A stretch of DNA of 64,000 bases from a virus (lineage: Duplodnaviria; Heunggongvirae; Uroviricota; Caudoviricetes): the IMG/VR virus record IMGVR_UViG_3300029571_000006; one strand, given 5' to 3'. The first letter of the stretch is position 1. Each line of letters starts with the position of its first letter. Made by a program: the position numbers and the translations under genes. This document shows positions 15,264 to 43,336 of the stretch, in pieces. The notes below the pieces were generated by a model. That model did not search any database, was not told where the DNA came from, and was given only the letters and a program-made list of their open reading frames with translations.

Positions 15264-15306
15264 TTGTTATCTCCTTTCAGTTTTATTGTGGGCTGTTACA
15301 CCCTAG

Positions 15307-15378
15307 CAGGGGTAGTTGGATTTGAACCAACGAATTTAGCAGTCAAAGTGCTATGCCTTACCGCTTGGCGATACCCCC
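15307..15378 (-). tRNA. tRNA-Gln (anticodon UUG)
   Basis: Cloverleaf by eye: acceptor GGGGGTA/TACCCCT, D-arm GCCAAGCGGTAAGGC, anticodon arm TAGCA-CTTTGAC-TGCTA (UUG), T-arm GTTGG-TTCAAAT-CCAAC, discriminator G. Close to E. coli tRNA-Gln. Confidence 0.7.
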
Positions 15379-23569: not shown

Positions 23570-23570
23570 A

Positions 23571-25031
23571 TTATTTTCCTCCATACATCCTTTCTCTAAT
23601 ATCCAGGAATGAGTCTTCTCTGACAAATGCTCCGTCTTTGAATACCGTTGTGAGTAAACTATCATCGCTCATTTCCATCAACTGATCTTGACATTTAAGC
23701 TGTCCATCTTCCTCGTAAACTCTGCAGCATCCCTTGTGTGATTTCTTCAAGTGACTTGTATCTGTTTTTGGATCTTTATAAATCATCACTTTTTCGCCAT
23801 TGATGATGCCATATGTTGCTTTCATTGCGATTCCAAATGTATCTCTTGTAGCCACAATGAGTTTTCCGTCCTCTGCAATCGCAGTAAAGCAGAAAGCACC
23901 AACGCCATATGCGATATTGTTCGCCGCAAACCCTCGTTTTTCTAACTCTCTCCAGATAGTATCTACATTTGATAATGTGCATCCATCTCCGTAGATAATA
24001 CCGATGTGTGGATCGAGCACTTTATACCCCTTACTGTTTGTGGTTCCTCCGAAAATCTCCCATAACTTTTCAACAGTTTTCACAGAAATATCCACAATGT
24101 CTCCGCTATCTGGTCTTACTAACAGCTTACCATGATGATTCATAATTTCTTCCTTGCATTGTGGAAGGATATTATTTATCATATTCCAGTAATCGTAGGT
24201 GTCGGATACCATACTAAATGATGTATTTGGATATAATTCAGTGAGTAATCTTTTGACAAAGGTAATTTCATCTCCATCTACAGAGAAGTTTGCACCCATA
24301 ACGCTATGCTCTGTCGATACAGCTCCAATGCCAATGCCTTCTTCTCTGCAATTTGCATTGTAATATTTGTCAATATAAGAAATTGCCGGAATCGTAGAAG
24401 TCTTATCGAATGATAAAAGCCATGATGCCGAGCATCTTACTGCCTCATCCATACAGGACATTCCTCGCATTCCAAAATCAGCGCAAGCAAGTTTACCACT
24501 CATTCCGTCTGTTGTATTATCGTACCAGTAGTCAGCAATATTTCGATACATATTACCAATCGTTGCATGACAGCATGGTTTCCAAAGTTCTACCTGTAAA
24601 ATACATTCAATCCACTGAACAAGCCATGCAAAGTCCTCATGTGTATTTGTGATTTCAATACATGGAATTCCCATTGTAACCATCGTTCCTTCTGGAAGCG
24701 CTCTGATTTCTAATGGTAAATATCCCAATCTGTGCAGTTGCACAATTTTATCAATATCATAATTACCATCGCCGATTTGAATATTCATTGTTTCTTTATA
24801 CTGACTTACCACATCTTCTTCCGTCTTACCAAAGAAATTATCATTGAAATATCCGATAAGATACTCTTTGATAAATGCCTGAAGACCAAAGAATACCATT
24901 TTATCCTGTTGCCTCAACATAGATCTTCTAGGAACCCAATATGACACGAGCTTCGTCAATCCTTTTGGATACATTCTGTCGTGACACTGTTTGTATGTAT
25001 CAGATAATAATAAAGCCATTACATCATTCAT
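23571..25031 (-). CDS. Nicotinamide phosphoribosyltransferase family protein (NAMPT/NadV-like; could be a Namat-type variant)
   Basis: N-terminal LLSDTYKQCH (NAMPT DSYK motif). 486 aa, type II PRTase pattern throughout. Confidence 0.75.
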   Translation of the reverse strand: MNDVMALLLSDTYKQCHDRMYPKGLTKLVSYWVPRRSMLRQQDKMVFFGLQAFIKEYLIGYFNDNFFGKTEEDVVSQYKETMNIQIGDGNYDIDKIVQLHRLGYLPLEIRALPEGTMVTMGIPCIEITNTHEDFAWLVQWIECILQVELWKPCCHATIGNMYRNIADYWYDNTTDGMSGKLACADFGMRGMSCMDEAVRCSASWLLSFDKTSTIPAISYIDKYYNANCREEGIGIGAVSTEHSVMGANFSVDGDEITFVKRLLTELYPNTSFSMVSDTYDYWNMINNILPQCKEEIMNHHGKLLVRPDSGDIVDISVKTVEKLWEIFGGTTNSKGYKVLDPHIGIIYGDGCTLSNVDTIWRELEKRGFAANNIAYGVGAFCFTAIAEDGKLIVATRDTFGIAMKATYGIINGEKVMIYKDPKTDTSHLKKSHKGCCRVYEEDGQLKCQDQLMEMSDDSLLTTVFKDGAFVREDSFLDIRERMYGGK

Positions 25032-25033
25032 TT

Positions 25034-25858
25034 CTACACCTCCAAAACCGTTATCTTCTCATGCTCTCCAGCAAATAAACTGCCTGTTGTAAATAATCTC
25101 TCTACTGTATTATCTTCGAGCGACCTTATCAATGTACCTTTTTCTCTGTCGAGTATTGAGTTTTCTGTATGTGTTGCATACGCATAAATTGTCTTAGCTC
25201 CAATACGTTTTAATTCTTTTGCACTGTAATATAGTGATCCGCCGTATGCAATGATGTCATCAATCATAAGTACTGTCTGACCGCCAAGTCCCATACCATT
25301 TGTTCTTACATCCAAACCAAGGATTTTGCCCGTATCCCAGTCACGTTTCTTTTCTCCATAGCAATATGGCATTCCCTGCAATAATCCTGAATACCTTTTA
25401 GCCGCACCCTCGTCCGGGAAATATAAGATAATTGGATTTTCTCCTATTTGTTTCAAAACTTCCTTAATATATCTTTCCGGTGTATATACAAGCACATTAT
25501 TCAGCAGTGCAGCTCCTACATTACTGTGAACATCAAGAATTCTGACAACATCAAACCGTAACCAGTTAATTGCATCTGCAAATCCCCGAAGCGTGAACAC
25601 CTCTCTTTGATTATGAATACGATCCATTCTTGCATTTGGAAGATACAGTAGATTAAGATAAATTTCCTGTATACACGGCATATTTCTGAGATGTCTAGTC
25701 ACATAGATGAGTGTAGATAGCTCCTCTTCCATTTCAAATTTCCAAGTAATCTCATGCGTATTTCTCCACTCCATCTTCGGGAGATTTTCAAGAACAATTC
25801 TCTGTGTTCCATCTGGGAAATGCTCTACCTTTACTTCTGTCCCATCTAAAATAATCAT
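25034..25858 (-). CDS. Ribose-phosphate pyrophosphokinase family protein (Prs-like; could be an ADP-ribose pyrophosphokinase Adps-type variant)
   Basis: FPDGTQRIVLENLP, VLMIDDIIAYGGSL (PRPP-binding loop) and GAKTIYAYATH. Confidence 0.65.
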   Translation of the reverse strand: MIILDGTEVKVEHFPDGTQRIVLENLPKMEWRNTHEITWKFEMEEELSTLIYVTRHLRNMPCIQEIYLNLLYLPNARMDRIHNQREVFTLRGFADAINWLRFDVVRILDVHSNVGAALLNNVLVYTPERYIKEVLKQIGENPIILYFPDEGAAKRYSGLLQGMPYCYGEKKRDWDTGKILGLDVRTNGMGLGGQTVLMIDDIIAYGGSLYYSAKELKRIGAKTIYAYATHTENSILDREKGTLIRSLEDNTVERLFTTGSLFAGEHEKITVLEV

Positions 25859-25861
25859 TCT

Positions 25862-26407
25862 TTACTCTCCTATCACATTTATCTGACAGCTTTTCATCAC
25901 TTCTAATGCGGCTGTATGTTTATCTGGAGTTGATCCTGCGCAGCAGCTTGCGTCCACAGTAACCTCCACATCTGGGTATGGGTACAAAGTTTTAATAATC
26001 AGTGCATTTGTAATCACACAAATATCTGTATCTAACCCACATAACTCAATGACTCTCGTGCCATCACCTTCAACATATACATACTTATCTAAGATATGTT
26101 GCCAAGAAAAATATCCAAAAGTATCTTTATCTACAACCTCATATGTGCCAGGAATTGTTTCCAGACCAATCTGCCACCCAGTTGTTCCCTTAACGCAATG
26201 TTTAATTGGTAACTTCTTCCCTTCTGCAGATGAAAAATATGTCTCATCTAAGTGAGTATCTCTTGTAAATACAACCGCATCACCCTGCCGGATATATCTC
26301 TCGATCTTTTCCTTTACTTTTGGAAGAATCGCTTTCGCCTCATTGCTTCCTAAAGCACCATCAATAAAATCGTTCTGAACATCTACAACGATCAAAATTC
26401 TATTCAT
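25862..26407 (-). CDS. Isochorismatase-family hydrolase (nicotinamidase PncA-like)
   Basis: ILIVVDVQNDF, conserved Lys and Cys (ELCGLDTDICV). Confidence 0.55.
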   Translation of the reverse strand: MNRILIVVDVQNDFIDGALGSNEAKAILPKVKEKIERYIRQGDAVVFTRDTHLDETYFSSAEGKKLPIKHCVKGTTGWQIGLETIPGTYEVVDKDTFGYFSWQHILDKYVYVEGDGTRVIELCGLDTDICVITNALIIKTLYPYPDVEVTVDASCCAGSTPDKHTAALEVMKSCQINVIGE

Positions 26408-27051: not shown

Positions 27052-27867
27052 CTACCCCGCAAAATTCTCGACTTCTACTATGTTACTGTCCATCAGATAA
27101 TTCCTTGTTCTTCCTCCAAGATTCAATTCCTTATACGCAGCTTCGATTTCCTCGGAAGTGATTCCGATGTAATCCAGCGTCTGTGCGGGCGAAGAATGAT
27201 TCAGCATCTTCTGCAAAAGCAAAAGCTTTCTGCTATCATTGTTCGACATCACCATCTGGTGATAGCAAAATGTTTTCCGTAAACTATGTGTAGCAATCCT
27301 TATGTTCAGGTGCAAATCGACCGCAATTCCTTTTAAAATCCGGTCTATTGACTGTTTTGATAATGGCTGATTCGTTGATTTCCCCCTATTGGATTCGCTA
27401 CGAAATAGATAATCACTCAACGTAACGCCTGGCGTATTCTCAAGATATAAAGTTACCGCCTCTATAACGGCGGTATTGATTGTGATATATCTATTCTTTT
27501 TTCTTTTCCTTGTATTTCTTGTTTTCTTTTCAAATACTGGGAAGTTATCACGAAATGTGAAATTATCATTGATAAGATTTGAGAATCTCAGCATCCTTAA
27601 ATCGCTGACTCGAAGTCCAAAGTTGATGCCGACTATGAATAGCATGTTATCTCTGTATCTTTTATTAGAAATGAGAAATTCAGAAATTGCATAGATATCA
27701 TCCAGACTTTTAATTGGCTCCGCAGCATGTTCCGGTGCTAATTCGCAATGGGTTTCCTCTTTCGCAGGAGCAATTAAACCGGCTGCGGACTTAACCTTAC
27801 TTCTCTGTAGTGCCTGTAAATCAATTACCTTATTTTTAGCATCTGCAATATTTACAATTTCACCCAA
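27052..27867 (-). CDS. Tyrosine recombinase / phage integrase family protein
   Basis: Box I GLRVSDL, HxLRxT (ATHSLRKTFCY), C-terminal LNHSSPAQTLDYIGITSEE with the catalytic Tyr. TTG start after GGAGGTG. Confidence 0.7.
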   Translation of the reverse strand: MGEIVNIADAKNKVIDLQALQRSKVKSAAGLIAPAKEETHCELAPEHAAEPIKSLDDIYAISEFLISNKRYRDNMLFIVGINFGLRVSDLRMLRFSNLINDNFTFRDNFPVFEKKTRNTRKRKKNRYITINTAVIEAVTLYLENTPGVTLSDYLFRSESNRGKSTNQPLSKQSIDRILKGIAVDLHLNIRIATHSLRKTFCYHQMVMSNNDSRKLLLLQKMLNHSSPAQTLDYIGITSEEIEAAYKELNLGGRTRNYLMDSNIVEVENFAG

Positions 27868-27879
27868 AGCTTACACCTC

Positions 27880-28908
27880 CTAAATTAGTCCTCTTACAAC
27901 TCTTTCGTTTACGTCCATCACAAATTCCTGTATTGCCTTATAGTCTGGCTTTTCAGGAAGATCTGTATTTTCTTTTGCATACTTCATCTTCTTTTCGTAG
28001 TCATCGACCATTTCAAAGAACTCCGGTATTGGCTGTCTATTACCATCAAGGTATTCACCATTTCTGATTGACATCAGCAGTTCATGTTCTTTCTCTCTGA
28101 ATGTTACAATCTCTTTTCTCTCAAGAATATCAAGGCACATCATATAGAGCCTGATTAGATGCATCATATGCTTTCCTAATTTGTTATGCTCTATCGCATT
28201 CTTATTTCTTTTCCCTACCTTGGCGTAGTCCTTCACCACATTATGCATTTCAGACCACATTGATTTATAATCCCGAAGTGGATATCTTGTTAAATGCACA
28301 TCCATATAAATTTCGGAATCCATATCTTCCCTATCCGACTTATCGATATACAACTTGATCGCGTCATCCGGATATTCAAAATATCTTTCTTTGAAGTCTG
28401 CACCCACGTTACGTATACTGTTTAATATGTGTTGCTCCCGCTGCGCTTGACCGACAAGCCTTGCTGCTTTATTATCAAGTCTTCTAAGCTGAGCCGTAGC
28501 ATATCCACCGAAAGCCTGTGCCGCTTTCTTTGAAAGGAACAAATCCTTATTATGTAATAATTCCTGTCCTACAGGAGACAGAAATAAATAATGCTCAGGC
28601 TTTAACCCAAGCATCTCAATCGTATTTGGATTGCAATTACAAAGCAAACTTATTAACTTATTGAACGCATACACTGTAGTATCCGTTTTCTCATCAACAA
28701 ACTGCTCGTAATGTTGATTTGTAAGAATTTCTTCCTTACTATTCAGAGCGCATCCTCTTACATCAAGGTCAGATGTCTCGTTATTTGTTCCATATGCATG
28801 ACTTCCTCCAAGTCCGATAAGGATGATTCTGTTTCCGAGGTGATCGTTATTTCTAAGGAAATTGTATTCCTCCGACGAGACCATATTTTTAATTGTTTGC
28901 AAATCCAT
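27880..28908 (-). CDS. Nucleotidyltransferase (minimal Pol-beta-fold NTase) with helical C-terminal domain
   Basis: ILIGLGGSHAYGTNNETSDLDVRG = GS...SDxD NTase signature. RBS GGAGGAG before MDLQTIKN. Confidence 0.5.
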   Translation of the reverse strand: MDLQTIKNMVSSEEYNFLRNNDHLGNRIILIGLGGSHAYGTNNETSDLDVRGCALNSKEEILTNQHYEQFVDEKTDTTVYAFNKLISLLCNCNPNTIEMLGLKPEHYLFLSPVGQELLHNKDLFLSKKAAQAFGGYATAQLRRLDNKAARLVGQAQREQHILNSIRNVGADFKERYFEYPDDAIKLYIDKSDREDMDSEIYMDVHLTRYPLRDYKSMWSEMHNVVKDYAKVGKRNKNAIEHNKLGKHMMHLIRLYMMCLDILERKEIVTFREKEHELLMSIRNGEYLDGNRQPIPEFFEMVDDYEKKMKYAKENTDLPEKPDYKAIQEFVMDVNERVVRGLI

Positions 28909-28910
28909 CT

Positions 28911-29154
28911 TACTCCTCCATAATGAATTCATGGATGCTACTCATATAATTCTGAACTTCTTCATCAGAGCATTTCTCAAAGCTTAAACTCAACGGCTTT
29001 GTCAGGTCTAAGCTGAAAATCCCCATAATTGATTTAGCATCAATGATATATCTTCCAGATTGCAGGAACACATCTCCGTCTACTCTGGATGTTTATTTAC
29101 GAACTCCTTAACTTTGTCAATAGAATTTAACATTACTTTACACATGATAATCAT
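28911..29154 (-). pseudogene. HPr-like phosphocarrier-domain gene interrupted by a -1 frameshift near 29080 and lacking the HARPA histidine motif
   Basis: Frame a: MIIMCKVMLNSIDKVKEFVNKHPE*. Frame b: VDGDVFLQSGRYIIDAKSIMGIFSLDLTKPLSLSFEKCSDEEVQNYMSSIHEFIMEE* (KSIMG-type HPr core). Confidence 0.3.
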
Positions 29155-29732: not shown

Positions 29733-29761
29733 AATAACTATCAGCCTTTCTTAAATATAAA

Positions 29762-30089
29762 TGGAGCTGAGGGGAGTCGAACCCCTGTCCAAAAATATTA
29801 CTCACTATGAATCTTTACGCTGTTTTGGAATCATGTACTGATTTCTATCCACCACTCTGTTCTTAACTGTCTCAACCAATACAGGTGTTCATTTACAGAG
29901 AACCGTATACAAATTATGCTTGTTTTTGAACCTCAGTATCTACCAGCAATATCTCAATACATTTTGGTGTAGCAACTTAGGCTACTGCTAACATCTGTCT
30001 GTTTGCGTTTGTGTTTAATAGTTGATGATTAAGTCATCACTCTAGCGAATTCATAACTTTCATACCCCTGTCGAAACCTTTACAGCCCC
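29762..30089 (-). ncRNA. ssrA: tmRNA (SsrA), phage-encoded
   Basis: 5' GGGGCTGTAAAGGTTTCGACAGGGG and 3' GGACAGGGGTTCGACTCCCCTCAGCTCCA match tmRNA tRNA-like ends. Acceptor GGGGCTG/CAGCTCC includes the G3-U identity pair. Tag-like reading frame ...GCAAACAGACAGATGTTAGCAGTAGCCTAA (…ANRQMLAVA*). Similar to the B. subtilis tmRNA ends. Confidence 0.75.
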
Positions 30090-30368
30090 CGAAAATCCAT
30101 CCAGCTATCGCCCTGTTTACTGGTGGTAGGAGGCTCGTTTCCTCCTATGTCTGGTCACGCGGTTACGTCGCTTCTGCAGGCTCCAAACTATTCTCCCGTA
30201 ACCCGGATACCGATATCACCTAAGTCGGAAGGGTTCTCTCCTCAAAAACTACCCAAGACTTTGGAGTGTTGCTCGTTATCAACGCACTTATCTGTTTTCA
30301 TGCACTGAATAAATCATATACCGAGCAAAGTCTTCTACAATAGGTGTTACAGATACCGCCTATTGTCT

Positions 30369-30408
30369 GCTGTAGAAAATCAACAGGGCAGATGTGACTC
30401 CACCCTGT
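30369..30408 (-). terminator. Rho-independent terminator after gene 30421..30771
   Basis: Minus-strand hairpin ACAGGG-N14-CCCTGT followed by TGATTTTCT. Confidence 0.45.
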
Positions 30409-30420
30409 CAAACATCAATT

Positions 30421-30771
30421 TTATAAACCAAGTTCCTGAATGACAGGTAAAACCTCGTCTTTTAATTCAGGATAGAACTTGTTGAGCGTCTCTCTCGCAT
30501 TTAATGGTTTGTCTGGCTTTGTATATCTTGCACATTCCCAGTCCACTACCATTTGGACAAAATCACTATGTGTCTTTGCCTTAATAGAATGATGTCTGGA
30601 ATGATTCCTATGCCAGTTATGCACTGATTTATAATCAAAAATCATATACAGAAACACCTTATCCAAATCATGAAGGATTCCTCTCAGGGTGTTATGTCCA
30701 AGCAGTTCTTTCTCTACTCTTCTGAATGCTTTTCTGTGCTTAACCGTATAGATAATTTTGTCTTTCTGCAT
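30421..30771 (-). CDS. Hypothetical protein (His-rich)
   Basis: 116-codon ORF. Confidence 0.4.
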   Translation of the reverse strand: MQKDKIIYTVKHRKAFRRVEKELLGHNTLRGILHDLDKVFLYMIFDYKSVHNWHRNHSRHHSIKAKTHSDFVQMVVDWECARYTKPDKPLNARETLNKFYPELKDEVLPVIQELGL

Positions 30772-30965
30772 CTTTAACTCCTCATATTAAAATCATTCTA
30801 TCTCACTATCGTTAATCATCCCAATCACCTCTAAATGGATTCATCGGACATGTATCACAATTACACACAAGTTCGCCGTGCTCGTCTACGGAGTAATCAT
30901 CTCCGTAGCCTCCGCACTCATAGCAATAGTCAAGCTCATCTTCGTCCATATCGATATTACCTCCG

Positions 30966-31285
30966 TCAGAATTTTAAAACCCTGACAGCGAGATCATACT
31001 CTTTAGCCAGGTCTATCATTGATTTTGTTCCTCTACTTTCTCCGTCCCAAAATGCTACCAAAGCATCGGCGTTTTGAGCCATCTCTTTATTTCTTATATA
31101 TCCAGCCGCTTTACCATACCGCTCCCAGTCTGCCGGGAAGTATGCAACATGGAAACCCATTTCTTTCGCATACTTCTCTCCAAGCCTGTCTGCTCCTCTT
31201 GCGGTTCCGCATACTATGGATATTTCATCACTGATATTCTGCAACAGACGATTCATATTTGCTTTTAACATTTCGTAGTTCGCAA
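30966..31285 (-). CDS. SLOG/DUF2493-like Rossmann-fold protein (YpsA/DprA-related)
   Basis: MFRVIIAGSRSF...SIVCGTARGADRLGEKYA...ADALVAFWDGESRGT pattern. Likely internal start. Confidence 0.4.
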
Positions 31286-31332
31286 ATGATCGGCTACCTG
31301 CAATTATTACTCTGAACATATTATCACCGGAA

Positions 31333-32079
31333 TTACTTTCCTCGCTGTCTCCTTGCCTCTTCGAGAATCTGACGAGCATTTCTTTCTCTCTCAGATGCCT
31401 CAAGTCTTCGATCAGCCGCCTGTGCGCTTGAATCATATGCGATTCGACTACCATCGGCGCGTTCTCTCGTCTTTCTTGCGCCCTCACGAACCCTCTCAAG
31501 CATCCTATCACTCTCGTTGTTCATGCTTAAAGAATCCATGCTCTGATGAAGTTCAATAATCTGACTATCGGCTTCCATCTGGAAAACTACCTGCTCTTTT
31601 TCTTCTTTTAGCTTCTGCAGTTCCTCAGCTGCTTGCTGCATAATCTCTTTCTGATGAGCTTCAACCTCTTTCATCTCATCCACAGTATCTTTTAAAACAT
31701 TGATTTTGCTTTCGAGCGTTGATTTCTTCCGTGCATACTGCATTGCCTCATCTTCTCGATCGCTGTCAATACAAGCATTCATATCGTTTGTAACTTTCAT
31801 AATTTCCTTCCGTGTCTTATGCAGATCATTTTCTGCAGCAGATCTTTTGCCGGAAATTTCAGCAAAACTTGCAGATGCCCTATTGTAAAAATCTTCTTTT
31901 TCTCTAATTGCGGCGTTGTAGTAATCTCTCGCTCCTTCTGGAGTCTGAGCGTCCTGGCGCATCACCTCGTCAGTTCTGCCTTTCATTTTCACACGAAGCT
32001 GTTTTCCAAAGACAGTTCCAAAGAGTATAATCACTGCAAGCACAATTACTACAATCACAATAAACATAAAGTTCGTCAT
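31333..32079 (-). CDS. Membrane-anchored coiled-coil protein (PspA/IM30-like?)
   Basis: N-terminal TM (FMFIVIVVIVLAVIILFG) followed by ~200 aa of heptad-like charged coiled coil. RBS TAGGAGGA. Confidence 0.35.
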   Translation of the reverse strand: MTNFMFIVIVVIVLAVIILFGTVFGKQLRVKMKGRTDEVMRQDAQTPEGARDYYNAAIREKEDFYNRASASFAEISGKRSAAENDLHKTRKEIMKVTNDMNACIDSDREDEAMQYARKKSTLESKINVLKDTVDEMKEVEAHQKEIMQQAAEELQKLKEEKEQVVFQMEADSQIIELHQSMDSLSMNNESDRMLERVREGARKTRERADGSRIAYDSSAQAADRRLEASERERNARQILEEARRQRGK

Positions 32080-32088
32080 GATGTCCTC

Positions 32089-32670
32089 CTACTCTGCGTC
32101 AATTCCGTACTGTCTGCAAAGAGCTGCAAGACCTCCGTTATATCCGCTACCAACTGCTTTAAATTTCCATTCACCGTTGTGTCGGTAAATCTCTGCAACA
32201 ACGATGGCTGTTTCTGTAGAGAAGTCTTCGCTCAGGTCAAATCTCATCAGTTCTTCTCCTGTGTCTGCGTCAACAACTCTTACGTATGCGTTTTCTACCA
32301 TTCCAAAATTCTGGAGTCTGCTTTCTGCATCGTAAATTGTTACAGTTACAGCGATTGATTCGTAATCATCCGGAACCTTGTCAAGTTTGATGTTGATTAC
32401 CTCATCATCTCCCTCTCCTTCGCCTGTTCGATTGTCGCCCATGTGAACTACGCTCTTTGAATTGTGTGCCAGATTTCCATAGAATACAAAGTCTCCATCC
32501 GATCCGACTTTACCATTTTCTTTTGTCATAAACACGGATGCATCTAGGTCAAAATCAGATTCTCCGTCGTAGTGATTGATGTCCCACCCAAGACCTACAA
32601 ATATATTCTTTAAAGAAGGGCGACCTTTCGTAAGGTCTACCCTCTGCCCTTTACTTAATAATACTGACAT
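32089..32670 (-). CDS. TerD-domain protein (tellurium-resistance TerD/TerE/TerZ family) paralogue 1
   Basis: KGQRVDLTKG, GLGWD, DLDASVF, GDNRTGEGEGDDE(V/T)I, EWKF(K/N)A(V/I)G motifs. Confidence 0.8.
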   Translation of the reverse strand: MSVLLSKGQRVDLTKGRPSLKNIFVGLGWDINHYDGESDFDLDASVFMTKENGKVGSDGDFVFYGNLAHNSKSVVHMGDNRTGEGEGDDEVINIKLDKVPDDYESIAVTVTIYDAESRLQNFGMVENAYVRVVDADTGEELMRFDLSEDFSTETAIVVAEIYRHNGEWKFKAVGSGYNGGLAALCRQYGIDAE

Positions 32671-32681
32671 GTGAATCCTCC

Positions 32682-33254
32682 TTATTTATATCTGTTTGCC
32701 AATTCACTGATACTTGTGTCGTTTGTTCCCTGTCCGATTGCATTGAACTTCCACTCTCCGTCTTTCTTATACACTTCTGCAAATACCATAGCAGTTTTTC
32801 CTGCATAATTTTCAGAGAGATTATATTTGCAAATTTCCTTTCTACTTGCGTCATCCACAAGTCTAATAAATGCGTTCTTAATCAGACCAAAGTCCTGTTT
32901 TCTGGATGTACAAGCATAGATATTAACAACGAATACAATCTTTTCGACATCGGATGGCATCTTTTCAAGATTTACTGTAATCTGTTCATCATCACCATCT
33001 CCGTCTCCGGTAAGGTTGTCTCCATGATGATATACACATCCGTCTTCAGCTGATCTGTCTCCGTAATATACAACACCCTTATACTTATTACCTTTACCCA
33101 GGATAATTGCAGACGCATCACAGTCAATGTTTGGCTTATGACCGAACACACCCTGTTTTGCTGCATCCCAGCCGAGACCTACAACCACCTTTTTAAGCCC
33201 TTCTACTTCTTTTGACAGATTGATTTTCTGCCCCTTTACTAAACTTACTGACAT
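32682..33254 (-). CDS. TerD-domain protein paralogue 2
   Basis: Same TerD motifs (KGQKINLSK, GLGWD, GDNLTGDGDGDDEQI, EWKFNAIG). Confidence 0.8.
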   Translation of the reverse strand: MSVSLVKGQKINLSKEVEGLKKVVVGLGWDAAKQGVFGHKPNIDCDASAIILGKGNKYKGVVYYGDRSAEDGCVYHHGDNLTGDGDGDDEQITVNLEKMPSDVEKIVFVVNIYACTSRKQDFGLIKNAFIRLVDDASRKEICKYNLSENYAGKTAMVFAEVYKKDGEWKFNAIGQGTNDTSISELANRYK

Positions 33255-33271
33255 ATGCCAACCCTTCTTTC

Positions 33272-33850
33272 TTATAAATTCAGTCCAAAGTTTCTACCGA
33301 CTGCTGCTAATCCTCCAGTAAATCCAGATCCAACAGCATTGAATTTCCATTCTCCATTTCTGCTGTACAGCTCTCCGGCAACTACGCCTGTCTCCAGTGA
33401 GAAGTCCTCATTCAAATCGTATCTGAAAAGCTCCTCATTTGTATCTGCATCGTATGCACGGATGTATGAATTATCAACCATACCAAAGTTTTGCAGCCTG
33501 TTTTCTGCATCGTAAATTGTTGCAGCGAAACTGATTTTGGAGATATTTGCCGGAATCTTTTCTAACTCGACCGTCATGGTTTCATCATCGCCGCTTCCTT
33601 CTCCTGTTCTGTTATCTCCTGAGTATGTAAGTGCTCCGCTCGGATGCTGTGGCTGTCCGTAGAATACGAAATCCTGCTCTCCTGTGACCTTGCCAGACTC
33701 ATCAGTGAAGAACGCCGACACATCAAGATCGAATTCTTCGTCTCCGTCATATCTGTTTGTGTCCCAGCCAAGAGCAAACACAACCCTCTTCAGCCCAGCA
33801 TTTCCTTTTGTAAGATCAATCTTCTGACCTTTCACTAAACTAATTGACAT
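33272..33850 (-). CDS. TerD-domain protein paralogue 3
   Basis: Same TerD motifs (KGQKIDLTKG, LGWD, GDNRTGEGSGDDETM, EWKFNAVG). Confidence 0.8.
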   Translation of the reverse strand: MSISLVKGQKIDLTKGNAGLKRVVFALGWDTNRYDGDEEFDLDVSAFFTDESGKVTGEQDFVFYGQPQHPSGALTYSGDNRTGEGSGDDETMTVELEKIPANISKISFAATIYDAENRLQNFGMVDNSYIRAYDADTNEELFRYDLNEDFSLETGVVAGELYSRNGEWKFNAVGSGFTGGLAAVGRNFGLNL

Positions 33851-33863
33851 GTTACAAACCTCC

Positions 33864-36455
33864 TTATTTTCTATTATCTACAGCCTTTCTTATAAGATCG
33901 ACTGGGATAACCATAAACGCAAGTGCGATAATTACAAGCCAATGATTTAAGTCAAGCGCTGTTGCCTTAATCAACGTTCCTGCGAAATCACACAGAATTA
34001 CTGTCATCGCACAGATTCCAACTGCAATATATGAGAACAGCTTATTCTTTCCTATACCTTTAAACAGATTCATATGTTCTGTACGGATATTGAATCCGTT
34101 GAATACAGCCATGAAACATAAGAGCGCAAATCTCGCCGTCATAGCCTCCACATCAGTTGCGAACATATTTGATACTGGACTGAATGTGATGATTCCGTAT
34201 AAGGCGATAAACGTAGCTGTACTGATTGCTATACGTTTCTTAGCTCCTCGAATAAATAATCCAGAACCCTTTTTAATAGGTCGCTCAGACATATATTCTT
34301 CCTTCGGCGGCTCACCTCCAAAAGACAGCGAGTTAAGTGAATCCATAATGATATTCACAATCAGAATTTGTACCGAAGCCAGCAGAGCACCGGTTGCAAC
34401 CATAGGATAAATCACACTCAAGATAAGCAATGCGATGTTGATTGGTAACTGGAACTCAAGAAACATCATGATGTTGTGCATGAATGTTCTTCCAAGTTCC
34501 ACAGCTTTTACAACACTTGCAAAGTTATCATCAGTCAGAACAATATCAGATGCCTCTTTTGCTACATCAGACCCGCCCTGCATACCGAATCCTACATCTG
34601 CTCTTTTTAATGCCGGTGAATCATTCACACCGTCTCCGGTCATCGCAACAGACTTTCCAATTTCCTGAGCAAGAGTTACCAGTCTCAGTTTTGTATTAGG
34701 TGAACATCTTGAAATAACTCTCAGTTTTGGAATGATACTTTTTACTTCGTCATCAGACATCGCTTCAAAGTCATCATTTGTAATAGCCAGATCTCCAGCC
34801 ATATAAATTCCACATTCTTCTGCCACGGCTTTTGCTGTCTCAAGGCAATCTCCGGTAATCTCGATTACCTGAATACCTGCTTTATGAGCCATAGCCACTG
34901 CATTTGGAACTTCCTCTCTTACCGGGTCAACAACTCCGATAATTCCTAACAATGTCATGTTATTTGGAAGCTCATTCTCAACAAGTTCTTCCTTTGATTG
35001 CGTAAGAGCAATACATCTCATTGACTTCGTTGTCATCTCTTTAATGTTCTCAAGCAGTCTAATCTTATCGCTGTCTGTAAATGTCTGAATTCCATCTCCG
35101 AGAGCTGTCGTACAGTGCTCAATGAGTTTTTCTGGAGCACCTTTATAATAGGTAACTTCGTTTGAACAACTTACTGCGGAATATTTATTAGAACTATTGA
35201 AGACCTGTTTCGCTTTGACCTGTAAGTCATTCACGATTTTTCCATACTCTTCAGAATCCGTCAGAGTTAATACCGCACGGTCAATGGAATTGCCTCCAGT
35301 AATTTCTCCGTTGCCGTCGAATACTGCGCTATTATTGATACAGATATTATTGACCATAGCTTTCCATAATTCAGACGATTCATCAACTTCATCTACAAAT
35401 GCATCGATGATTTTCTTTGGGGTCATGACTCCGGTTGTAAGCGTACCAGTCTTATCCGTACAAATAATATCCACATAAGCAAGCTCTGGAATTTTGCCTG
35501 GATTCTTCGCCAGAATATTGAACGTCTCCATCGTCCGAACATTTTGCTTTGTTACGAGCTTTACAATCAGTGGAAGCCCCTCCGGAACTGCTGCTACAAT
35601 AATTGTTAATGCGACAGAGAAATTCTGTGCGATTTTCTGGATCACATCTAAAATATTTCCTCCGAAATAGTTGCTGAACCCAACACTCATGATGCCTGTC
35701 ATTGTCAAAACTGCAAATGTTACCACAGCTGCGACGGTTCCCCATTTTGAAATAAAGTCACTTAAATTATCGAGTGCGATATCAAGAGCTGTTTTCGGAG
35801 ATTCCAATGTCTGCATCTTAACCATCGTATCCCCGTTGACTGTATTTACGCCTACATCTGTGACAATCATCTTGCCCTCGCCTGACATAACCGTAGTTCC
35901 TGCAAACAAGCAATTCGGGTTTGTGTATGCAGATGTTGATGTAGTTTTTGCGTGTATGTATCCTTGAATCGGTGTCTTCTTACACTCTTTTGTCTCTCCA
36001 TTGATTGCTGCATTATTCACTGAGATTTTTCCATCTACAATATAACCATCAGCGAAAATCTCCTGTCCCATACCTACACATACTAAATCTCCAACAACCA
36101 ACTCATCCTTGTTGATTGTCTGAACTTTCCCATCACGAATTACATCGCAGTACCTGACCGAAGTCTTTGCTCGCAACTCTGCTGCTGACTTCTGAACACC
36201 AAGTCCAGTCTTTACAGCAATCACTGTCACGATTGCAAGTACCACAAGAATCATGATTGGATCAGAAAGTTCCATCACTCCCATGAATCCGAGGAATAAC
36301 TGCAGAACAGCAATGGCAATCAAAATCATTGTGATTTTTTCACTCAATGCCTCTTTTGCAAAGTCATACCACTTCTTCATCTTCGGTTCTGGAAGTTTAT
36401 TACTGCCATGCATTTCCCTGCTTCGCAGAACCTCACTACTACTTAATCCATTCAT
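33864..36455 (-). CDS. P-type cation-transporting ATPase (Ca2+-type, P2 family)
   Basis: DKTGTLT phosphorylation motif, TGDGVNDSPALKRADVGFGM hinge motif, ten predicted TM segments. Start MNGLSS after RBS GAAAGGAG (the track start lies inside a terminator hairpin). Confidence 0.8.
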   Translation of the reverse strand: MNGLSSSEVLRSREMHGSNKLPEPKMKKWYDFAKEALSEKITMILIAIAVLQLFLGFMGVMELSDPIMILVVLAIVTVIAVKTGLGVQKSAAELRAKTSVRYCDVIRDGKVQTINKDELVVGDLVCVGMGQEIFADGYIVDGKISVNNAAINGETKECKKTPIQGYIHAKTTSTSAYTNPNCLFAGTTVMSGEGKMIVTDVGVNTVNGDTMVKMQTLESPKTALDIALDNLSDFISKWGTVAAVVTFAVLTMTGIMSVGFSNYFGGNILDVIQKIAQNFSVALTIIVAAVPEGLPLIVKLVTKQNVRTMETFNILAKNPGKIPELAYVDIICTDKTGTLTTGVMTPKKIIDAFVDEVDESSELWKAMVNNICINNSAVFDGNGEITGGNSIDRAVLTLTDSEEYGKIVNDLQVKAKQVFNSSNKYSAVSCSNEVTYYKGAPEKLIEHCTTALGDGIQTFTDSDKIRLLENIKEMTTKSMRCIALTQSKEELVENELPNNMTLLGIIGVVDPVREEVPNAVAMAHKAGIQVIEITGDCLETAKAVAEECGIYMAGDLAITNDDFEAMSDDEVKSIIPKLRVISRCSPNTKLRLVTLAQEIGKSVAMTGDGVNDSPALKRADVGFGMQGGSDVAKEASDIVLTDDNFASVVKAVELGRTFMHNIMMFLEFQLPINIALLILSVIYPMVATGALLASVQILIVNIIMDSLNSLSFGGEPPKEEYMSERPIKKGSGLFIRGAKKRIAISTATFIALYGIITFSPVSNMFATDVEAMTARFALLCFMAVFNGFNIRTEHMNLFKGIGKNKLFSYIAVGICAMTVILCDFAGTLIKATALDLNHWLVIIALAFMVIPVDLIRKAVDNRK

Positions 36456-36480
36456 TTCTTTACTCCTTTCGTTTGTTTTG

Positions 36481-36520
36481 TATATATAAATAGCGAGTTG
36501 CATTGCTGCAAGCTCGCTAT
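36481..36520 (-). terminator. Rho-independent terminator between gene 36529..37041 and the ATPase gene
   Basis: Minus-strand near-perfect 14-bp stem ATAGCGAGCTTGCA.../...TGCAACTCGCTAT followed by TTTATATAT. Confidence 0.5.
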
Positions 36521-36528
36521 GTTTCGTG

Positions 36529-37041
36529 TTAGAATCTCTGTCTCAAAAACTGATTTTCCAACCCTGCTGCTGAATGATCCATCATATGTCTTAAACCATA
36601 CATATGATCTGCATAATCATAACCCATCCATCTCCATCTAGCTGCATCTATGTAGTCTGGATAGTCCGGCTTTTCCTGATATATTCTAAGTAATTCATGT
36701 ATAAATTTTCCGAATTCTGTTTGTGTCATGCTTTGTATTGCAATATCATCTGGCACACAAACTACTCTCGTTGTGTTATCTCTAACAGTATCAGACACAT
36801 TTTTTAAAAGCCTATCCATATAATCCAGTGTATACTCTCCAGCTGGATATCTTATTGCAAGGAGCCGATTATGGATTGTAATACAGTCAATCATATTTCC
36901 TTCGACCGATCCGGCGCAGCGATTATACTTGTCCACGATAGTCATCAGAGACATACAATCAACATATCTTGCTCCTAACTTTTTTTGCGCAAATTCGCAC
37001 AATTCTTTTTTAAGCCTATCAACTGCATCCATCAGAATCAC
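36529..37041 (-). CDS. Hypothetical protein
   Basis: 170-codon ORF. Confidence 0.4.
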   Translation of the reverse strand: MILMDAVDRLKKELCEFAQKKLGARYVDCMSLMTIVDKYNRCAGSVEGNMIDCITIHNRLLAIRYPAGEYTLDYMDRLLKNVSDTVRDNTTRVVCVPDDIAIQSMTQTEFGKFIHELLRIYQEKPDYPDYIDAARWRWMGYDYADHMYGLRHMMDHSAAGLENQFLRQRF

Positions 37042-37366
37042 CTTCTTTGCACTTAATCAGGTCTCCCTCCCAGAACAACCATTCCGGACTCTCTTTCAGG
37101 CTAACCAGACCATTGTCTTCAACATGCGCTGTAAATACTTGTCCATCGCACTGATTGATGAATTCTTTGTATCTATCGTGCATAGACTCGTAATTTTTAC
37201 CAGACTTCACACGTTTTACATTGACCACGACTTTCATACCGTCTTCGATTAAGTCACCATCGTTTTTGCTTGCAAGCATTGTCAAATAGGCATCTACATA
37301 CTCTTTTGGGATACCTTTTGCTTTAGCTTCTTTAGCAAACTTCCTTCGTTTTTCACGATTTAACAT
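37019..37366 (-). CDS. Hypothetical protein
   Basis: 115-codon ORF. Confidence 0.35.
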   Translation of the reverse strand: MLNREKRRKFAKEAKAKGIPKEYVDAYLTMLASKNDGDLIEDGMKVVVNVKRVKSGKNYESMHDRYKEFINQCDGQVFTAHVEDNGLVSLKESPEWLFWEGDLIKCKEGDSDGCS

Positions 37367-40713: not shown

Positions 40714-42930
40714 CTATTCGTCTTTGAATTTCTTACCGGAGTCTGATTCGTAAAACATATCTCGCAATGTGCAGATATTTCTCGGAACACTATCTAAATC
40801 CTCTACATCATGAAGTGTTTTAACCCATGCGTAGAACTGATTTGCAAGAGGTGTTACCAATGCCGCTGTTCTTTTCGGGTCAATATATCCTTTCTTAATG
40901 GCTTCATGCGAAATTGATCTCATGAATTTCCAGAAATTGTAGTACGCCAGTTTCAGCTTAACCATGTATCCGTTTGAATCTTCAATAACGAATCCCTCGA
41001 TGCGTCTTCCGTCATACTTGTAATCTTCATCCATTACCATATTGTACCAATCAAAGAAGTCCTGCCATGTTTCAATCTCATATCCCAATTCTTTATGAGG
41101 AATGTTGAGAGATTCAGCAACAGTACACATCTCCTCAAAACTAAGCTTCTGGAATTTCATATCATTTGATACGATATCCAGCAGAAATACTCTGCTCTCC
41201 GGATACTTAATAATGTGAGGGTCTCTTTCCATGTCTACATTTTCAAATACAAATGATACGTCATGCTCTTTACAATAAGCATTGATCTTATCAAGAGTAT
41301 CGTCACCAAGCTGTGTATGAAGTGCTTCAGCAAACCATTCAGCATATGACCCTTCCGGATTTGACTTAGTAGTCACAAACAGTTTTCCTGTTTCTGGATT
41401 ATTGGATACGATTCCAAGATATCCATTCTCCTTGACGTATGCCCTCACAGGGAATGCCAACTTATCCTGCAGCTTGTCTAATTCTGTCTCTGGTCTTTCG
41501 TTGATGTTAAAGAACTTATCATAAGCTCTGGCAACAATTTTCTGTTTTGGAATATCGATGTATAATCCTCTTGCCTTTGTTGTCTGCTCGTCCCAGATTT
41601 TGTCATAAAACGCTGTTTTGGTGAAGTTAAATGATGAGATATCTCCATACTGCTTTTCCTTGATGTACTTATTTCTTCTAAGCTCAAGAATCCACTCTCC
41701 GACGGAATCCGCACCAGCAGACACCTCTTCCGGTTCTCTAAATACTGTATTCTTTACCTCTACCGTATTGAAAGTACCGTCGTTATCGAGGATAACAGCT
41801 CTCAGGCTTCCACCAAACTCAACTCTTCCTTCAAGATTGAAGGCATGATTGTTGACTTTTACCGGAAGTCCTTTTGTATTTCTATGACCATGAATCTGAT
41901 AACAATTTTCATCCATCTTATCCTCGAATGTTGCATCTACCTGCTCAGCATCGTTGTATCTTCCAACACCCTTAATCATCTGACTGGTAGATACCATTGT
42001 GAGATTATCTGGAATCATACTTAACCCAGCATGTGTGGCAAGGACTGTCTTACCTCTGAATTCGTAATAAGCGCACTGACCCATCCGTCTGTAAAGCTTC
42101 CTGATTGACTTCTTATCAATACCGGCTGCTTCGATTTCTGCTTTTGTATGGAATTCAAACTCTTTAGATGCCGTCACTTTATCATGCGCCCAGTCCCATA
42201 ACCACCGCTCATGATTACCCTCAAGAAGCAGCACATTCGGCTTATCATATGTTGAAAGCAAGAATTTCAAGACATCAGCGTTTTCAATTCCTCGATCTGT
42301 GTAATCACCACAGAAGATGTAGAATTCATCATCTTTAAAACCGCCATTCGCTTCAAAATATGTATTCAATGCTGTATTACATCCATGAATATCTCCAATA
42401 TGATGGATACGTTTGTACTGATCCAGATTGAATTTCTTCATAAACACAGCGTTTAACTCATCTGGCTGAATAACCTTAATGCCTGACGGAATTTTCTGTG
42501 TCTCGAACCTTGCATACATCTTATCGATTACTTCTTCCGGCACTCTTTTCAGTTCCTGTCGTCCTCGATTTCTTTCCTTTGTTACCTCGATTGGAACAGT
42601 CGTCATATCAACGCAGTAGATTCGGTATCTGTACTCATCGCACATCTTCTTATATCTATTCATTTCAGATGTTTTAGAGTTAGTAGCATCAATCACAGTA
42701 AACTCGCCATTCTTCATTCTTGTCTCCAAGATATTGAACAGTGTTTTCCACACAATATTATCATTTGCCTGACTGATTGCGTGTGTTCCGTCCGGCATCA
42801 TCTGCGGACTTGAGCACATCATTCTAATATTATCTGCTGATAATGCATACTGTTTTAATCCGTTCTGCTCAATCCATGTGGATTTCCCACATCCTGCGCT
42901 TCCTCTTAATAACAGTAAAACTCTCATGTT
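40714..42930 (-). CDS. Pnkp-like RNA repair enzyme: polynucleotide 5'-kinase + metallophosphoesterase (3'-phosphatase) + nucleotidyltransferase/ligase domain
   Basis: P-loop LLLRGSAGCGKST, phosphoesterase GDIHGC...GDYTDRG...GNHE, ligase motif I KENGYLGIV. RBS GAGAGGTG before MRVLLLL. Confidence 0.6.
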   Translation of the reverse strand, partial: NMRVLLLLRGSAGCGKSTWIEQNGLKQYALSADNIRMMCSSPQMMPDGTHAISQANDNIVWKTLFNILETRMKNGEFTVIDATNSKTSEMNRYKKMCDEYRYRIYCVDMTTVPIEVTKERNRGRQELKRVPEEVIDKMYARFETQKIPSGIKVIQPDELNAVFMKKFNLDQYKRIHHIGDIHGCNTALNTYFEANGGFKDDEFYIFCGDYTDRGIENADVLKFLLSTYDKPNVLLLEGNHERWLWDWAHDKVTASKEFEFHTKAEIEAAGIDKKSIRKLYRRMGQCAYYEFRGKTVLATHAGLSMIPDNLTMVSTSQMIKGVGRYNDAEQVDATFEDKMDENCYQIHGHRNTKGLPVKVNNHAFNLEGRVEFGGSLRAVILDNDGTFNTVEVKNTVFREPEEVSAGADSVGEWILELRRNKYIKEKQYGDISSFNFTKTAFYDKIWDEQTTKARGLYIDIPKQKIVARAYDKFFNINERPETELDKLQDKLAFPVRAYVKENGYLGIVSNNPETGKLFVTTKSNPEGSYAEWFAEALHTQLGDDTLDKINAYCKEHDVSFVFENVDMERDPHIIKYPESRVFLLDIVSNDMKFQKLSFEEMCTVAESLNIPHKELGYEIETWQDFFDWYNMVMDEDYKYDGRRIEGFVIEDSNGYMVKLKLAYYNFWKFMRSISHEAIKKGYIDPKRTAALVTPLANQFYAWVKTLHDVEDLDSVPRNICTLRDMFYESDSGKKFKDE

Positions 42931-43336
42931 TTCACCTCTCATATATTTCTTAGTTGGTTGCATAAGTAACTCCACTCCAGACCTCACTCATTGCCTTTAC
43001 GCATGACGATATTGCAACCACAATAATGCCTCAAGTGCATTACCGATAGTCTTTTCAGTATACTTATAGGAGCAGGGGTGTTAGTGTTTCCCGTCTCAGT
43101 CTACCAAGGTATTTACGAAGCCAGAAAAGGAATAATCGCTCCGTCCGTTGAGGCTACGCCTTACGCATCGCTGAAAAGCTCATCGTTTCGCTTCGATGGT
43201 GCAACTTCCACCTAACCTCTATTTCTTTTACGCCCAAATATATAAACAAATATATGCCAACCACAACATACTTGTTTATATATCCACCTTGGAACCCGAC
43301 CGCTACTCACAGCCGTGATATGTTATCTCAACCGGG

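Follow-up and report, generated by a model that had tools for sequence, protein, structure and literature searches.

Introduction

Proteins of the TerD family occur widely, and Ter systems have well-documented phenotypes, namely resistance to tellurite, phages and pore-forming colicins; we know of no agreed molecular role for TerD itself. PspA and Vipp1 proteins, for their part, stabilise stressed membranes. Here we analyse a block of genes, at positions 30966–36520 of a 64,000-nucleotide stretch of the caudoviricete record IMGVR_UViG_3300029571_000006, in which proteins of both kinds are encoded next to a P-type ATPase of the calcium type. This whole 64-kb stretch is referred to below as the window.

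The closest described relatives of this gene set are found in the Jug (jumbo gut) phages of Bacteroides and Phocaeicola, which encode a Ca-translocating P-type ATPase and three terD genes, one of them beside a pspA-like gene (Sci Adv 2026, PMC12880540). In these phages the terD operons and the Ca-ATPase gene are highly transcribed (PMC12880540). The same work reports phage Ca-ATPases as new, finding them also in 81 other huge phages and in four smaller phages of 159–197 kb, some with homologues close to those of Bacillota; a viral precedent, as cited there, is the Ca2+-ATPase of a chlorovirus (PMC12880540). With regard to the other components, TerD binds Ca2+, a Streptomyces TerD-domain gene affects Ca homeostasis, and Ter clusters have been implicated in phage inhibition and in colicin resistance (PMC8123226). 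Homologues of PspA associate with transporters and with Band-7 proteins (PMC11237479). It should be noted that the text of the 2024 survey of phage shock protein (PSP) systems makes no mention of TerD, calcium or P-type ATPases.

A conserved cassette in large phages of gut Clostridia

Within the block lies an accessory operon that is conserved in a clade of large phages of gut Clostridia. According to the open reading frame (ORF) listing, essentially all genes of the window lie on the minus strand, and the block described in the initial annotation therefore begins with the pump and ends with the gene of a SLOG protein. The order of transcription is as follows: Ca-type P-type ATPase, TerD1, TerD2, TerD3, a PspA/Vipp1-like protein anchored by a transmembrane (TM) helix, SLOG, a 45-aa ORF and a 116-aa gene. 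The TM and SLOG genes, initially said to precede the TerD genes, thus follow them. Intergenic gaps in the block measure 9–39 nt, the ORFs contain no internal stops, and most genes are preceded by a good ribosome-binding site (RBS).

The first five genes constitute the conserved cassette. The first line of evidence is synteny. The ATPase gene was found in 146 IMG/VR contigs (68–99% identity) and the PspA-like gene in 204. After removal of duplicates, the ATPase, the TerD gene or genes and the PspA-like gene were contiguous in 96 of the 98 assessable non-redundant IMG/VR loci, which come from phage contigs of 40–250 kb; some contigs of the clade are larger. This co-occurrence holds for the three kinds of genes just named; it fails for SLOG, the 45-aa ORF and the 116-aa gene. 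Matching PHROGs families exist for all cassette components (phrog_12316, 5698, 33389 and 5359).

Four cassette architectures share the same gene order. About 65 loci, the window among them, have an ATPase followed by three TerD genes and the PspA-like gene. In about 27 others, the ATPase is followed by a vWA-TerF-like gene, a single TerD gene of 212 aa and the PspA-like gene; four loci combine a vWA gene with three TerD genes between the ATPase and PspA genes; and in a further lineage, an ATPase only 48% identical to that of the window is followed by three TerD genes. The vWA protein of the single-TerD architecture matches PF10138 with 204 bits, retains an intact DxSxS motif and also matches Copine. 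The flanks of the cassette are hypervariable, with few genes common to relatives within 10 kb on either side. Recombination breakpoints fall even inside the cassette (L005, L167 and L168) without breaking its order; in the last two loci the ATPase and TerD1 are 88–89% identical to those of the window, whereas TerD2, TerD3 and PspA are only 45–55% identical.

The second line of evidence is selection. In comparison with a 95%-identical relative, at unsaturated dS, the ratio of nonsynonymous to synonymous substitution rates (dN/dS) is 0.03 for the pump, 0.075 for TerD1, 0.054 for TerD2 and 0.026 for TerD3; that for the PspA-like gene lies within the range spanned by all five genes, 0.026–0.075. 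All five core genes are under strong purifying selection.

Phage origin of the window, assumed from the start, was borne out by genes for a phage DNA polymerase, a DnaB helicase and a primase, together with PhoH, and by the relatives, which are IMG/VR contigs. The closest ATPases in GTDB occur in genomes of Lachnospiraceae, Ruminococcus and Oscillospiraceae. Eleven GTDB genomes carry the ATPase (67–70% identity) as a standalone gene; in two long contigs of which the flanks were read (L093 and L097), its neighbours are ordinary chromosomal genes: leuA, leuC, leuB and ilvA, for example, or genes for a CDF transporter and a TetR regulator. Five other GTDB genomes, including that of the isolate Ruminococcus sp. 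AM36-2AA, have the phage-type cassette. The bacterial standalone ATPases nest among the phage ones in a quick neighbour-joining tree, the sampling for which was biased by the peptide-pattern search. Among cultured phages (INPHARED), megablast of the block found no near-DNA match. All tblastn matches of the ATPase in that collection have at most 33% identity, and most of them lie in unannotated records named Listeria, Enterococcus or Escherichia phage that are probably bacterial DNA. The initial remark that such a gene set is uncommon in phages therefore holds for cultured phages, but within this uncultured clade the cassette is the rule.

The P-type ATPase

The pump gene occupies positions 33864–36455 (minus strand), and in Pfam its product matches Cation_ATPase_N, E1-E2_ATPase, Hydrolase and Cation_ATPase_C. 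Its correct start codon, ATG, lies at 36455 and is preceded by the RBS GAAAGGAG; the protein accordingly has 863 aa, not 864 or 879, and gene callers also give 863 aa for the ATPase of relatives. Thus, of the initial description of an 864-aa ATPase with DKTGT, the motif stands and the length needs correction by one residue. The window ATPase contains DKTGT and TGDGVNDSPALK. In an alignment of 108 unique homologues, TDKTGTLT is present in 106 and TGDG[VTI]ND in all 108; the phosphorylation domain is of the HAD type (Hydrolase).

The residues expected to bind the cargo are equally well conserved. AAVPEGLP, with the glutamate of M4, and VN(I/V)(I/V)MD, with the asparagine and aspartate of M6, were each found in 108 of 108 homologues. 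We take the PEGLP glutamate and the M6 asparagine and aspartate to be the ligands of Ca2+ site II, equivalent to E309, N796 and D800 of SERCA. In M5 of the pump (FQLPINIALL), the asparagine aligned with SERCA N768 is kept, whereas the position of E771 is occupied by leucine; the alignment with ACA8 is in register here. Since the E771 position is not acidic, site I would be missing, leaving a single Ca2+ site (site II), as in PMCA and LMCA1.

The PMCA type is by far the best-fitting NCBIfam subtype. Scores against the other calcium and magnesium subtypes remain far from their cut-offs (PMR1 type, 416 against 798; SERCA type, 333 against 703; Mg type, 224 against 611), as do those against the H+ and heavy-metal types. 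The nearest solved structures are those of Arabidopsis ACA8, SPCA1 and Listeria LMCA1 (E = 1e-103 to 1e-92). The pump is, by its sequence, a PMCA/LMCA1-like single-site P2-type ATPase and is predicted to export Ca2+ from the cytoplasm. Its original designation as a Ca-type ATPase has thus been strengthened by the subtype ranking and the conserved Ca-site residues, and no substrate signature for another cation was found in it.

The TerD proteins

The three tandem TerD genes are intact, as initially reported, and encode proteins of 192, 190 and 193 aa, each of which covers PF02342 in full (profile positions 1–187; gathering score 25.3) and has a putative Ca2+-binding loop. TerD1, at 33272–33850 (minus strand), is cytosolic and scores 248.6 bits; TerD2, at 32682–33254 (minus strand), is the most divergent paralogue (235.2 bits); TerD3, at 32089–32670 (minus strand), is the nearest to canonical TerD (277.9 bits). 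Pairwise identities are 41, 57 and 42%, and similarities 62, 73 and 66%, which roughly agrees with the earlier estimate of 45–60% mutual similarity.

TerD3 can be aligned over its full length with Klebsiella TerD (2kxt; E = 1.5e-72), with which it shares an identical acidic loop, GDNRTGEGDGDDE. The corresponding loops are GDNRTGEGSGDDE in TerD1 and GDNLTGDGDGDDE(Q) in TerD2, the latter being present in 48 of 51 orthologues. The general pattern, GDN(R/L)TG.G.GDDE, is found in all three TerD proteins of the window and in nearly all of the roughly 50 orthologues of each. A role of this loop in Ca binding was described by Pan et al. 2011, as cited in PMC8123226.

A quick tree resolves three position-specific orthologue groups of TerD, and the paralogues therefore look old and non-redundant. 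In the same tree, TerD2 falls together with the third TerD of L002, a bacterial YceG-TelA-TerDx3 locus. Decay of the paralogues, which would have spoken against a functional module, was not observed: dN/dS is low, internal stops are absent and TerD2 is split in only 1 of about 98 loci.

The membrane-anchored PspA/Vipp1-like protein

The last core gene, at 31333–32079 (minus strand), encodes a protein of 248 aa that consists of one N-terminal TM helix, a Lys/Arg cluster and a long helical hairpin or coiled coil. The TM helix spans approximately residues 4–24, with a mean Kyte-Doolittle hydropathy of 3.1–3.4 over residues 1–24. Both the helix and the Lys/Arg cluster are kept in all lineages and in both cassette types; as the cluster follows the helix, the ESCRT-III-like part of the protein is predicted to face the cytoplasm.

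The relationship to PspA and Vipp1 becomes apparent at the level of the family. PF04012 matches 14 members of a 16-member alignment and 33 of 59 diverse representatives, the best with E = 1e-11. Family profiles match Vipp1/PspA chains with E = 2e-4 (first profile) and E = 1e-6, in register. In the AF2 model, core residues 51–160 have pLDDT above 90 (mean pLDDT 77, pTM 0.46), and the TM helix (residues 2–21) and a long helical hairpin are recovered. The top seven Foldseek matches in the PDB are all Vipp1/PspA structures, with a probability of 1.0 and TM-scores of 0.47–0.67, but with weak E-values of about 1e-2. Profile matches and the predicted fold agree in making this protein a probable membrane-anchored member of the PspA/Vipp1 (ESCRT-III superfamily) type. 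The family is small, comprising 237 clusters at 50% identity among 1.84 billion.

A TelA or PspA identity had been suggested as worth checking for this coiled-coil protein; of the two, PspA likeness was found and TelA likeness was not. TelA is ruled out, as PF05816 matches none of the 59 representatives, while a true TelA (from L002) scores 340 bits. A PADLOC match to JetC (E = 9e-4) was judged a spurious coiled-coil match.

Some genomic surroundings of PspA-like genes deserve mention. An SPFH/Band-7 gene, of the kind described as a PspA partner, lies in the window at 44395–45267 (minus strand), and in vWA-type relatives an SPFH gene is found about 2 kb downstream of the PspA-like gene (L070, 16721–17686). 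Another phage context is seen in Bacillus phage G (gp243–gp250; L188) and in MT835556 (L189), where an ABC permease, an ABC ATPase, a protein of 191–204 aa, a PspA-like protein and an OmpA/MotB protein are encoded together. The PspA-like protein of MT835556 matches PF04012 with 42.4 bits, and its OmpA/MotB protein also has an NMT1/THI5-like domain, probably a solute-binding domain (PBPB in the survey). The 2024 PSP survey describes a corresponding PspA-ABC-OmpA context.

Proposed function and alternative explanations

We propose, with a probability of roughly 0.6, that the cassette is a Ca2+-export, Ca2+-sensing and membrane-stabilising module serving the phage in the infected or lysogenic cell. 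The proposal starts from what the preceding sections report: gene identities, catalytic and Ca-site residues, conservation, synteny, selection and a tightly spaced transcription unit. When the envelope of such a cell is breached, be it by phage entry, superinfection, pore-forming abortive-infection effectors or bacteriocins, Ca2+ would leak in from the gut lumen, where its concentration is millimolar. The TerD proteins, acting between the pump and the PspA-like protein, would sense or buffer the incoming Ca2+; the anchored PspA-like protein would stabilise or reseal the membrane and so preserve the proton-motive force; the pump would bring cytosolic Ca2+ back down; and the cell might thereby stay productive for the phage. 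The joint action of the three components, the direction of the benefit and any coupling between TerD and PspA are what we infer. Neighbours of the cassette include genes of the counter-defence type (a NARP1-like pair, Pnkp-Rnl, RlaP and Thg1), which makes a role against membrane-permeabilising abortive-infection effectors plausible.

A more ambitious version of the proposal, in our opinion a doubtful one, holds that the cassette is a self-contained, Ca2+-triggered membrane-repair device used by phages against pore-forming abortive-infection effectors. The TerD proteins and the copine-like vWA protein would then be Ca2+ sensors that recruit or activate the PspA-like polymer at leaks, with the pump resetting Ca2+.

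Several observations weigh against the proposed module. With regard to the pump, its score against the PMCA-type model TIGR01517 (502.9 bits; cut-off 507.05) falls about 4 bits short; its score against SPCA1 is near those of the PMCA and LMCA1 types, so that Mn2+ is a possible cargo; and its A-domain motif is NGET/NGES rather than TGES, the glycine and the catalytic glutamate being kept and threonine being replaced by asparagine. This replacement is common to phage and host homologues. The PspA-like protein of the window, taken alone, scores 26.7 bits against PF04012, below the gathering score of 33.9, and the canonical Ca loop is missing from the single 212-aa TerD that vWA-type cassettes encode. 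In the Jug phages the pump is not adjacent to the TerD-PspA genes, which means that coupling is not obligatory. As to defence, no cassette protein has a significant match among the defence-system models of PADLOC-DB 2.0, and we know of no anti-defence activity for any of them. Finally, in a scan of the window for sigma-70-type promoters, sites were no more numerous than in shuffled sequence, and no promoter has therefore been assigned there.

The main rival of this proposal is protection of the lysogen. According to it, a prophage would express the cassette to protect membrane and Ca balance against other phages and pore-forming bacteriocins (lysogenic conversion or superinfection exclusion), much as plasmid Ter clusters do with their Phi and PacB phenotypes. 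The reported involvement of Ter clusters in phage inhibition and colicin resistance (PMC8123226) fits such a role. So do the hairpins that bound the unit like a moron, the tyrosine recombinases of the window, and the occurrence of relatives in isolate genomes and long bacterial scaffolds, for example on a 499-kb scaffold of Ruminococcus sp. AM36-2AA and among isolate-derived IMG UViGs. One relative (L060) even has a perfect consensus promoter, TTGACA-17-TATAAT, ahead of its ATPase gene. The genes of the window, however, run in one direction and lie amid replication and nucleotide-metabolism genes typical of lytic-cycle expression; moreover, no repressor-linked context was seen and no PADLOC match was obtained. 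We consider lysogen protection unlikely on balance, though the most serious of the alternatives.

That the cassette is a mere juxtaposition of host-derived auxiliary genes, such as a Ca pump remodelling host metabolism, a role that has been proposed in Jug phages, and general stress proteins with no joint function, appears very improbable. It would agree with the separate operons of the ATPase and the terD and pspA-like genes in Jug phages, and with the standalone chromosomal location of the closest bacterial ATPases (67–70% identity). It is difficult to reconcile with a gene order that is kept in 96 of 98 loci, and down to 48% ATPase identity, in spite of hypervariable flanks and recombination within the cassette. 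Moreover, the small PspA-like family occurs in viral contigs essentially always with TerD and the pump.

The view of the initial annotation, in which a Ter-like stress system including SLOG is functionally linked with a pathway for a nucleoside-like metabolite (PRTase/HAD/Prs) encoded 7 kb away, is largely refuted, and we regard it as very improbable. TerD genes and, in relatives, a vWA-TerF-like gene are hallmark Ter components, and SLOG does lie within the transcription unit of the window. Nevertheless, more than 90% of cassettes lack SLOG, as do the 95%-identical relatives; the phosphoribosyltransferases (PRTases) in question are NAMPT-like and PRPS-like proteins encoded beside PncA-like and NadE genes, which are not syntenic with the cassette across relatives; and the window encodes no homologue of PRTase_2/TRSP, StiP, C-C lyase, YceG, TelA or TerC.

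Lysis control through Ca2+, with the TM and coiled-coil protein as a spanin-, holin- or antiholin-like component, can be dismissed as highly improbable: the single N-terminal TM helix followed by a coiled coil and a weak match to the Rz-like spanin family phrog_214 (E = 4.7e-5, no single stretch passing alone) recall such proteins, but no endolysin or holin gene is adjacent, the homology to PspA/Vipp1 is consistent in sequence and fold, and a spanin would have no role in the predicted hosts, as Clostridia are a class without an outer membrane.

Boundaries and expression of the transcription unit

The proposed Ca2+ and membrane module would be expressed from a unit bounded by two hairpins. Upstream, a stem-loop at 36490–36520 (minus strand; -17.4 kcal/mol, z = -5.96) lies 35 nt before the ATPase start and just past the stop of the preceding 170-aa gene. 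It forms the 5' boundary of the cassette, as a terminator or insulator. The initial annotation had placed the end of the operon at 36481–36520; given the minus-strand polarity and the position upstream of the ATPase gene, this hairpin is the upstream boundary and not the end of the block. At the same place, another hairpin, followed by a T-run, is seen in three close relatives (L006, L007 and L062).

In these relatives the canonical hairpin and T-run extend from about 60 to 25 nt before the ATPase start, about 30 nt before the RBS, a proximity that leaves scant space for a promoter. Expression of the ATPase cassette may depend on read-through, antitermination or a promoter overlapping the hairpin. 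No riboswitch upstream of the pump, for example of the Mn/Ca-type yybP-ykoY class, was matched by Rfam at E ≤ 1 in the region 30000–37200.

Downstream, an intrinsic-terminator-like hairpin at 30380–30411 (minus strand), with a 13-bp stem and a T-run (-19.2 kcal/mol, z = -2.9), is the 3' terminator of the cassette transcription unit. From position 30416 onwards the sequence of the window, terminator included, is conserved with L183. A phage tmRNA gene follows directly after the terminator, at 29759–30089 (minus strand; Rfam 91 bits), with the tag ANRQMLAVA* predicted by ARAGORN.

Later insertions

Between the PspA-like gene and the terminator lie three genes that are later insertions into the cassette transcription unit. 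The SLOG gene, at 30966–31319 (minus strand), encodes 117 aa, in place of a 181-aa ORF, and its product belongs to the SLOG/YAcAr (DUF2493) family (PF10686, 60.2 bits against a gathering score of 28.2; phrog_289, 120 bits). The Rossmann-type protein was therefore correctly recognised at the outset, but its inclusion in the module did not survive comparison. SLOG is confined to the closest sub-lineage (L005, L006, L062 and their duplicates); in L182–L187, whose DNA is 95% identical to either side, neither SLOG nor the 116-aa gene is present, and the PspA-like gene is followed by the small Cys-rich ORF and then directly by the terminator. SLOG is thus a lineage-specific passenger within the transcription unit and no core part.

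The zinc-ribbon-like Cys-rich ORF of 45 aa, read from the translation at 30812–30949 (minus strand), is present in 14 of 187 loci, all of the closest sub-lineage, where it stands directly after the PspA-like gene; in L182–L187 it is called as a 46-aa gene. The 116-aa protein, encoded at 30421–30771 (minus strand), has an H..HD..HH pattern and no Pfam or PHROG match. Its gene is missing from L183 and adjoins RlaP in L169–L181; given this association elsewhere, it probably belongs to RNA repair and not to the cassette. Like SLOG, it is a recent insertion.

Neighbouring genes

The PRTase genes that had suggested a Ter-associated biosynthetic module belong to a block at 22156–26407 (minus strand) encoding NadE, NAMPT-like, PRPS-like and PncA-like isochorismatase proteins. 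The NAMPT-like protein (486 aa; NF006629, 458.6 bits) directly adjoins the PRPS-like protein of 274 aa. These genes of the 22–26 kb region serve NAD salvage or reconstitution and include a NARP1-like pair (Adps + Namat arrangement). The Ter-associated PRTase/HAD/Prs module itself does not occur in the window: tblastn searches of the 64 kb with TerC, TelA and YceG gave nothing at E ≤ 0.01, and no homologue of PRTase_2/TRSP, StiP, C-C lyase or vWA-TerF was found there. All of these Ter-specific families were seen in the canonical bacterial locus L002, which served as the positive control. Among the 30 proteins of the cassette and its neighbourhood that were scanned against Pfam, none showed a TerB domain, TerB not having been a query itself.

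Other neighbours include an RNA and DNA repair set, all on the minus strand: a 757-aa kinase-phosphatase-RNA ligase (Pnkp-Rnl1) fusion at 40714–42987, an RlaP nucleotidyltransferase at 27880–28932, a Thg1-like enzyme at 21295–22134 and an ATP-dependent DNA ligase at 46250–47536. A reverse transcriptase (RVT_1, 73 bits; 51918–53081) and an AAA/nSTAND3-like ATPase (47548–48669) are encoded on the same strand, and a RAGATH-16 RNA motif lies at 63385–63457 (minus strand; 88.9 bits against a gathering score of 65.6). A tRNA-Gln gene (15306–15378) adjoins an integrase-like gene (phrog_5830; 15469–16425), both on the minus strand. A second, small tyrosine recombinase of 271 aa is encoded at 27052–27867 and a tRNA-Met at 57345–57418 (both minus strand). 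These tRNA and recombinase features may bear on whether the phage integrates or exists as a phage-plasmid.

Comparison with known systems

Each component of the cassette has counterparts with which it can be compared. The pump shares with the PMCA- and LMCA1-type Ca2+-ATPases of bacteria and plants the P2 architecture, the PEGLP glutamate, the M6 asparagine and aspartate and the lack of a glutamate equivalent to E771. It differs from ACA8 in having no calmodulin-binding extension, the match beginning at ACA8 residue 127, and from the PMCA and LMCA1 types in the NGE(T/S) motif of the A domain and in the location of its gene inside a TerD/PspA operon. The likeness of the anchored protein to PspA, LiaH and Vipp1 (IM30) extends, in profile and fold, over the helical hairpin core and is in register. 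Yet where PspA and Vipp1 have an N-terminal amphipathic helix, it has a true TM helix; the PspA partners PspB, PspC, PspF, LiaI and LiaF are lacking beside it, their place being taken by TerD and the pump; and, in contrast to classical PspA, it belongs to a small, divergent family mostly below the Pfam threshold.

The Jug phages resemble the clade of the window most closely as a whole. The same three kinds of genes are found on large gut phages in both cases, and the Jug ATPase, too, has DKTGT and the Ca-site residues and is related to host homologues. In Jug phages, however, the pump gene is co-transcribed with a small gene of 77–91 aa, away from terD, and the terD regions form separate operons, whereas in the clade of the window, phages of Clostridia with vWA-containing variants, the pump, TerD and PspA-like genes form one contiguous unit.

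Ter clusters (terZABCDEF, IncHI2 plasmids; the YceG-TelA-TerDx3 locus with its biosynthetic module in Firmicutes, L002) have tandem TerD genes in common with the cassette. The Ca loop of Klebsiella TerD is identical to that of TerD3, a vWA-TerF-like partner occurs in cassette relatives, and the phenotypes of Ter clusters concern insults to the membrane (phages, pore-forming colicins and tellurite). The cassette differs in lacking TerC, TerB, TelA, YceG and the PRTase_2/StiP/C-C lyase genes; the membrane-side positions are held by the pump and the PspA-like protein instead.

TerD is common in phages in general (136 INPHARED records), and the cassette is not alone in pairing it with a membrane cation exporter. 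Herelleviridae (Lysinibacillus phage LysYB1 and Bacillus phage YungSlug) have tandem TerD genes, 57–58% identical to TerD3, beside a membrane cation-transport protein; in this TerD-TerD-TerC arrangement the membrane partner is TerC instead of a P-type ATPase, and a PspA-like gene is lacking. In LysYB1 (L003, 7356–9371), the gene annotated as "hypothetical" directly after two TerD genes encodes TerC (PF03741, 167 bits), and a similar membrane protein of 246 aa is encoded near the TerD genes of YungSlug (L004). The membrane protein of about 245 aa after the Herelleviridae TerD genes had been a PspA-like candidate; it is unrelated to PspA, the LysYB1 copy being TerC.

The components were thus already known, each from phages; what is new is that pump, TerD and PspA form a fixed operon, that this operon has vWA variants, and that there is a PspA subfamily with a TM anchor. 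In our opinion, the significant result is that, across about a hundred non-redundant phage loci, TerD has repeatedly been retained with a Ca2+ exporter on one side and an ESCRT-III-like protein anchored in the membrane on the other. This provides a clue to the function of TerD and replaces the vague label of a stress protein by a concrete three-component hypothesis that can be tested with five genes. The results also extend phage Ca-ATPases from Bacteroides jumbo phages to phages of Clostridia, which suggests that interfering with Ca2+ and with the integrity of the membrane is a strategy common among large gut phages and possibly a new class of counter-defence.

In eukaryotic cells, Ca2+ triggers repair of the plasma membrane by ESCRT-III through ALG-2 and ALIX. 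A sensor of the influx, a polymer of ESCRT-III at the damaged site and the extrusion of Ca2+ have potential equivalents in the TerD proteins, the anchored PspA-like protein and the pump. The sensors are not homologous, TerD being no EF-hand protein, and the likeness serves purely as a working analogy. If the repair-device interpretation proved true, the cassette would be a prokaryotic or viral counterpart of eukaryotic wound repair, and it would also reveal what TerD does at the core of Ter clusters, a function long sought.

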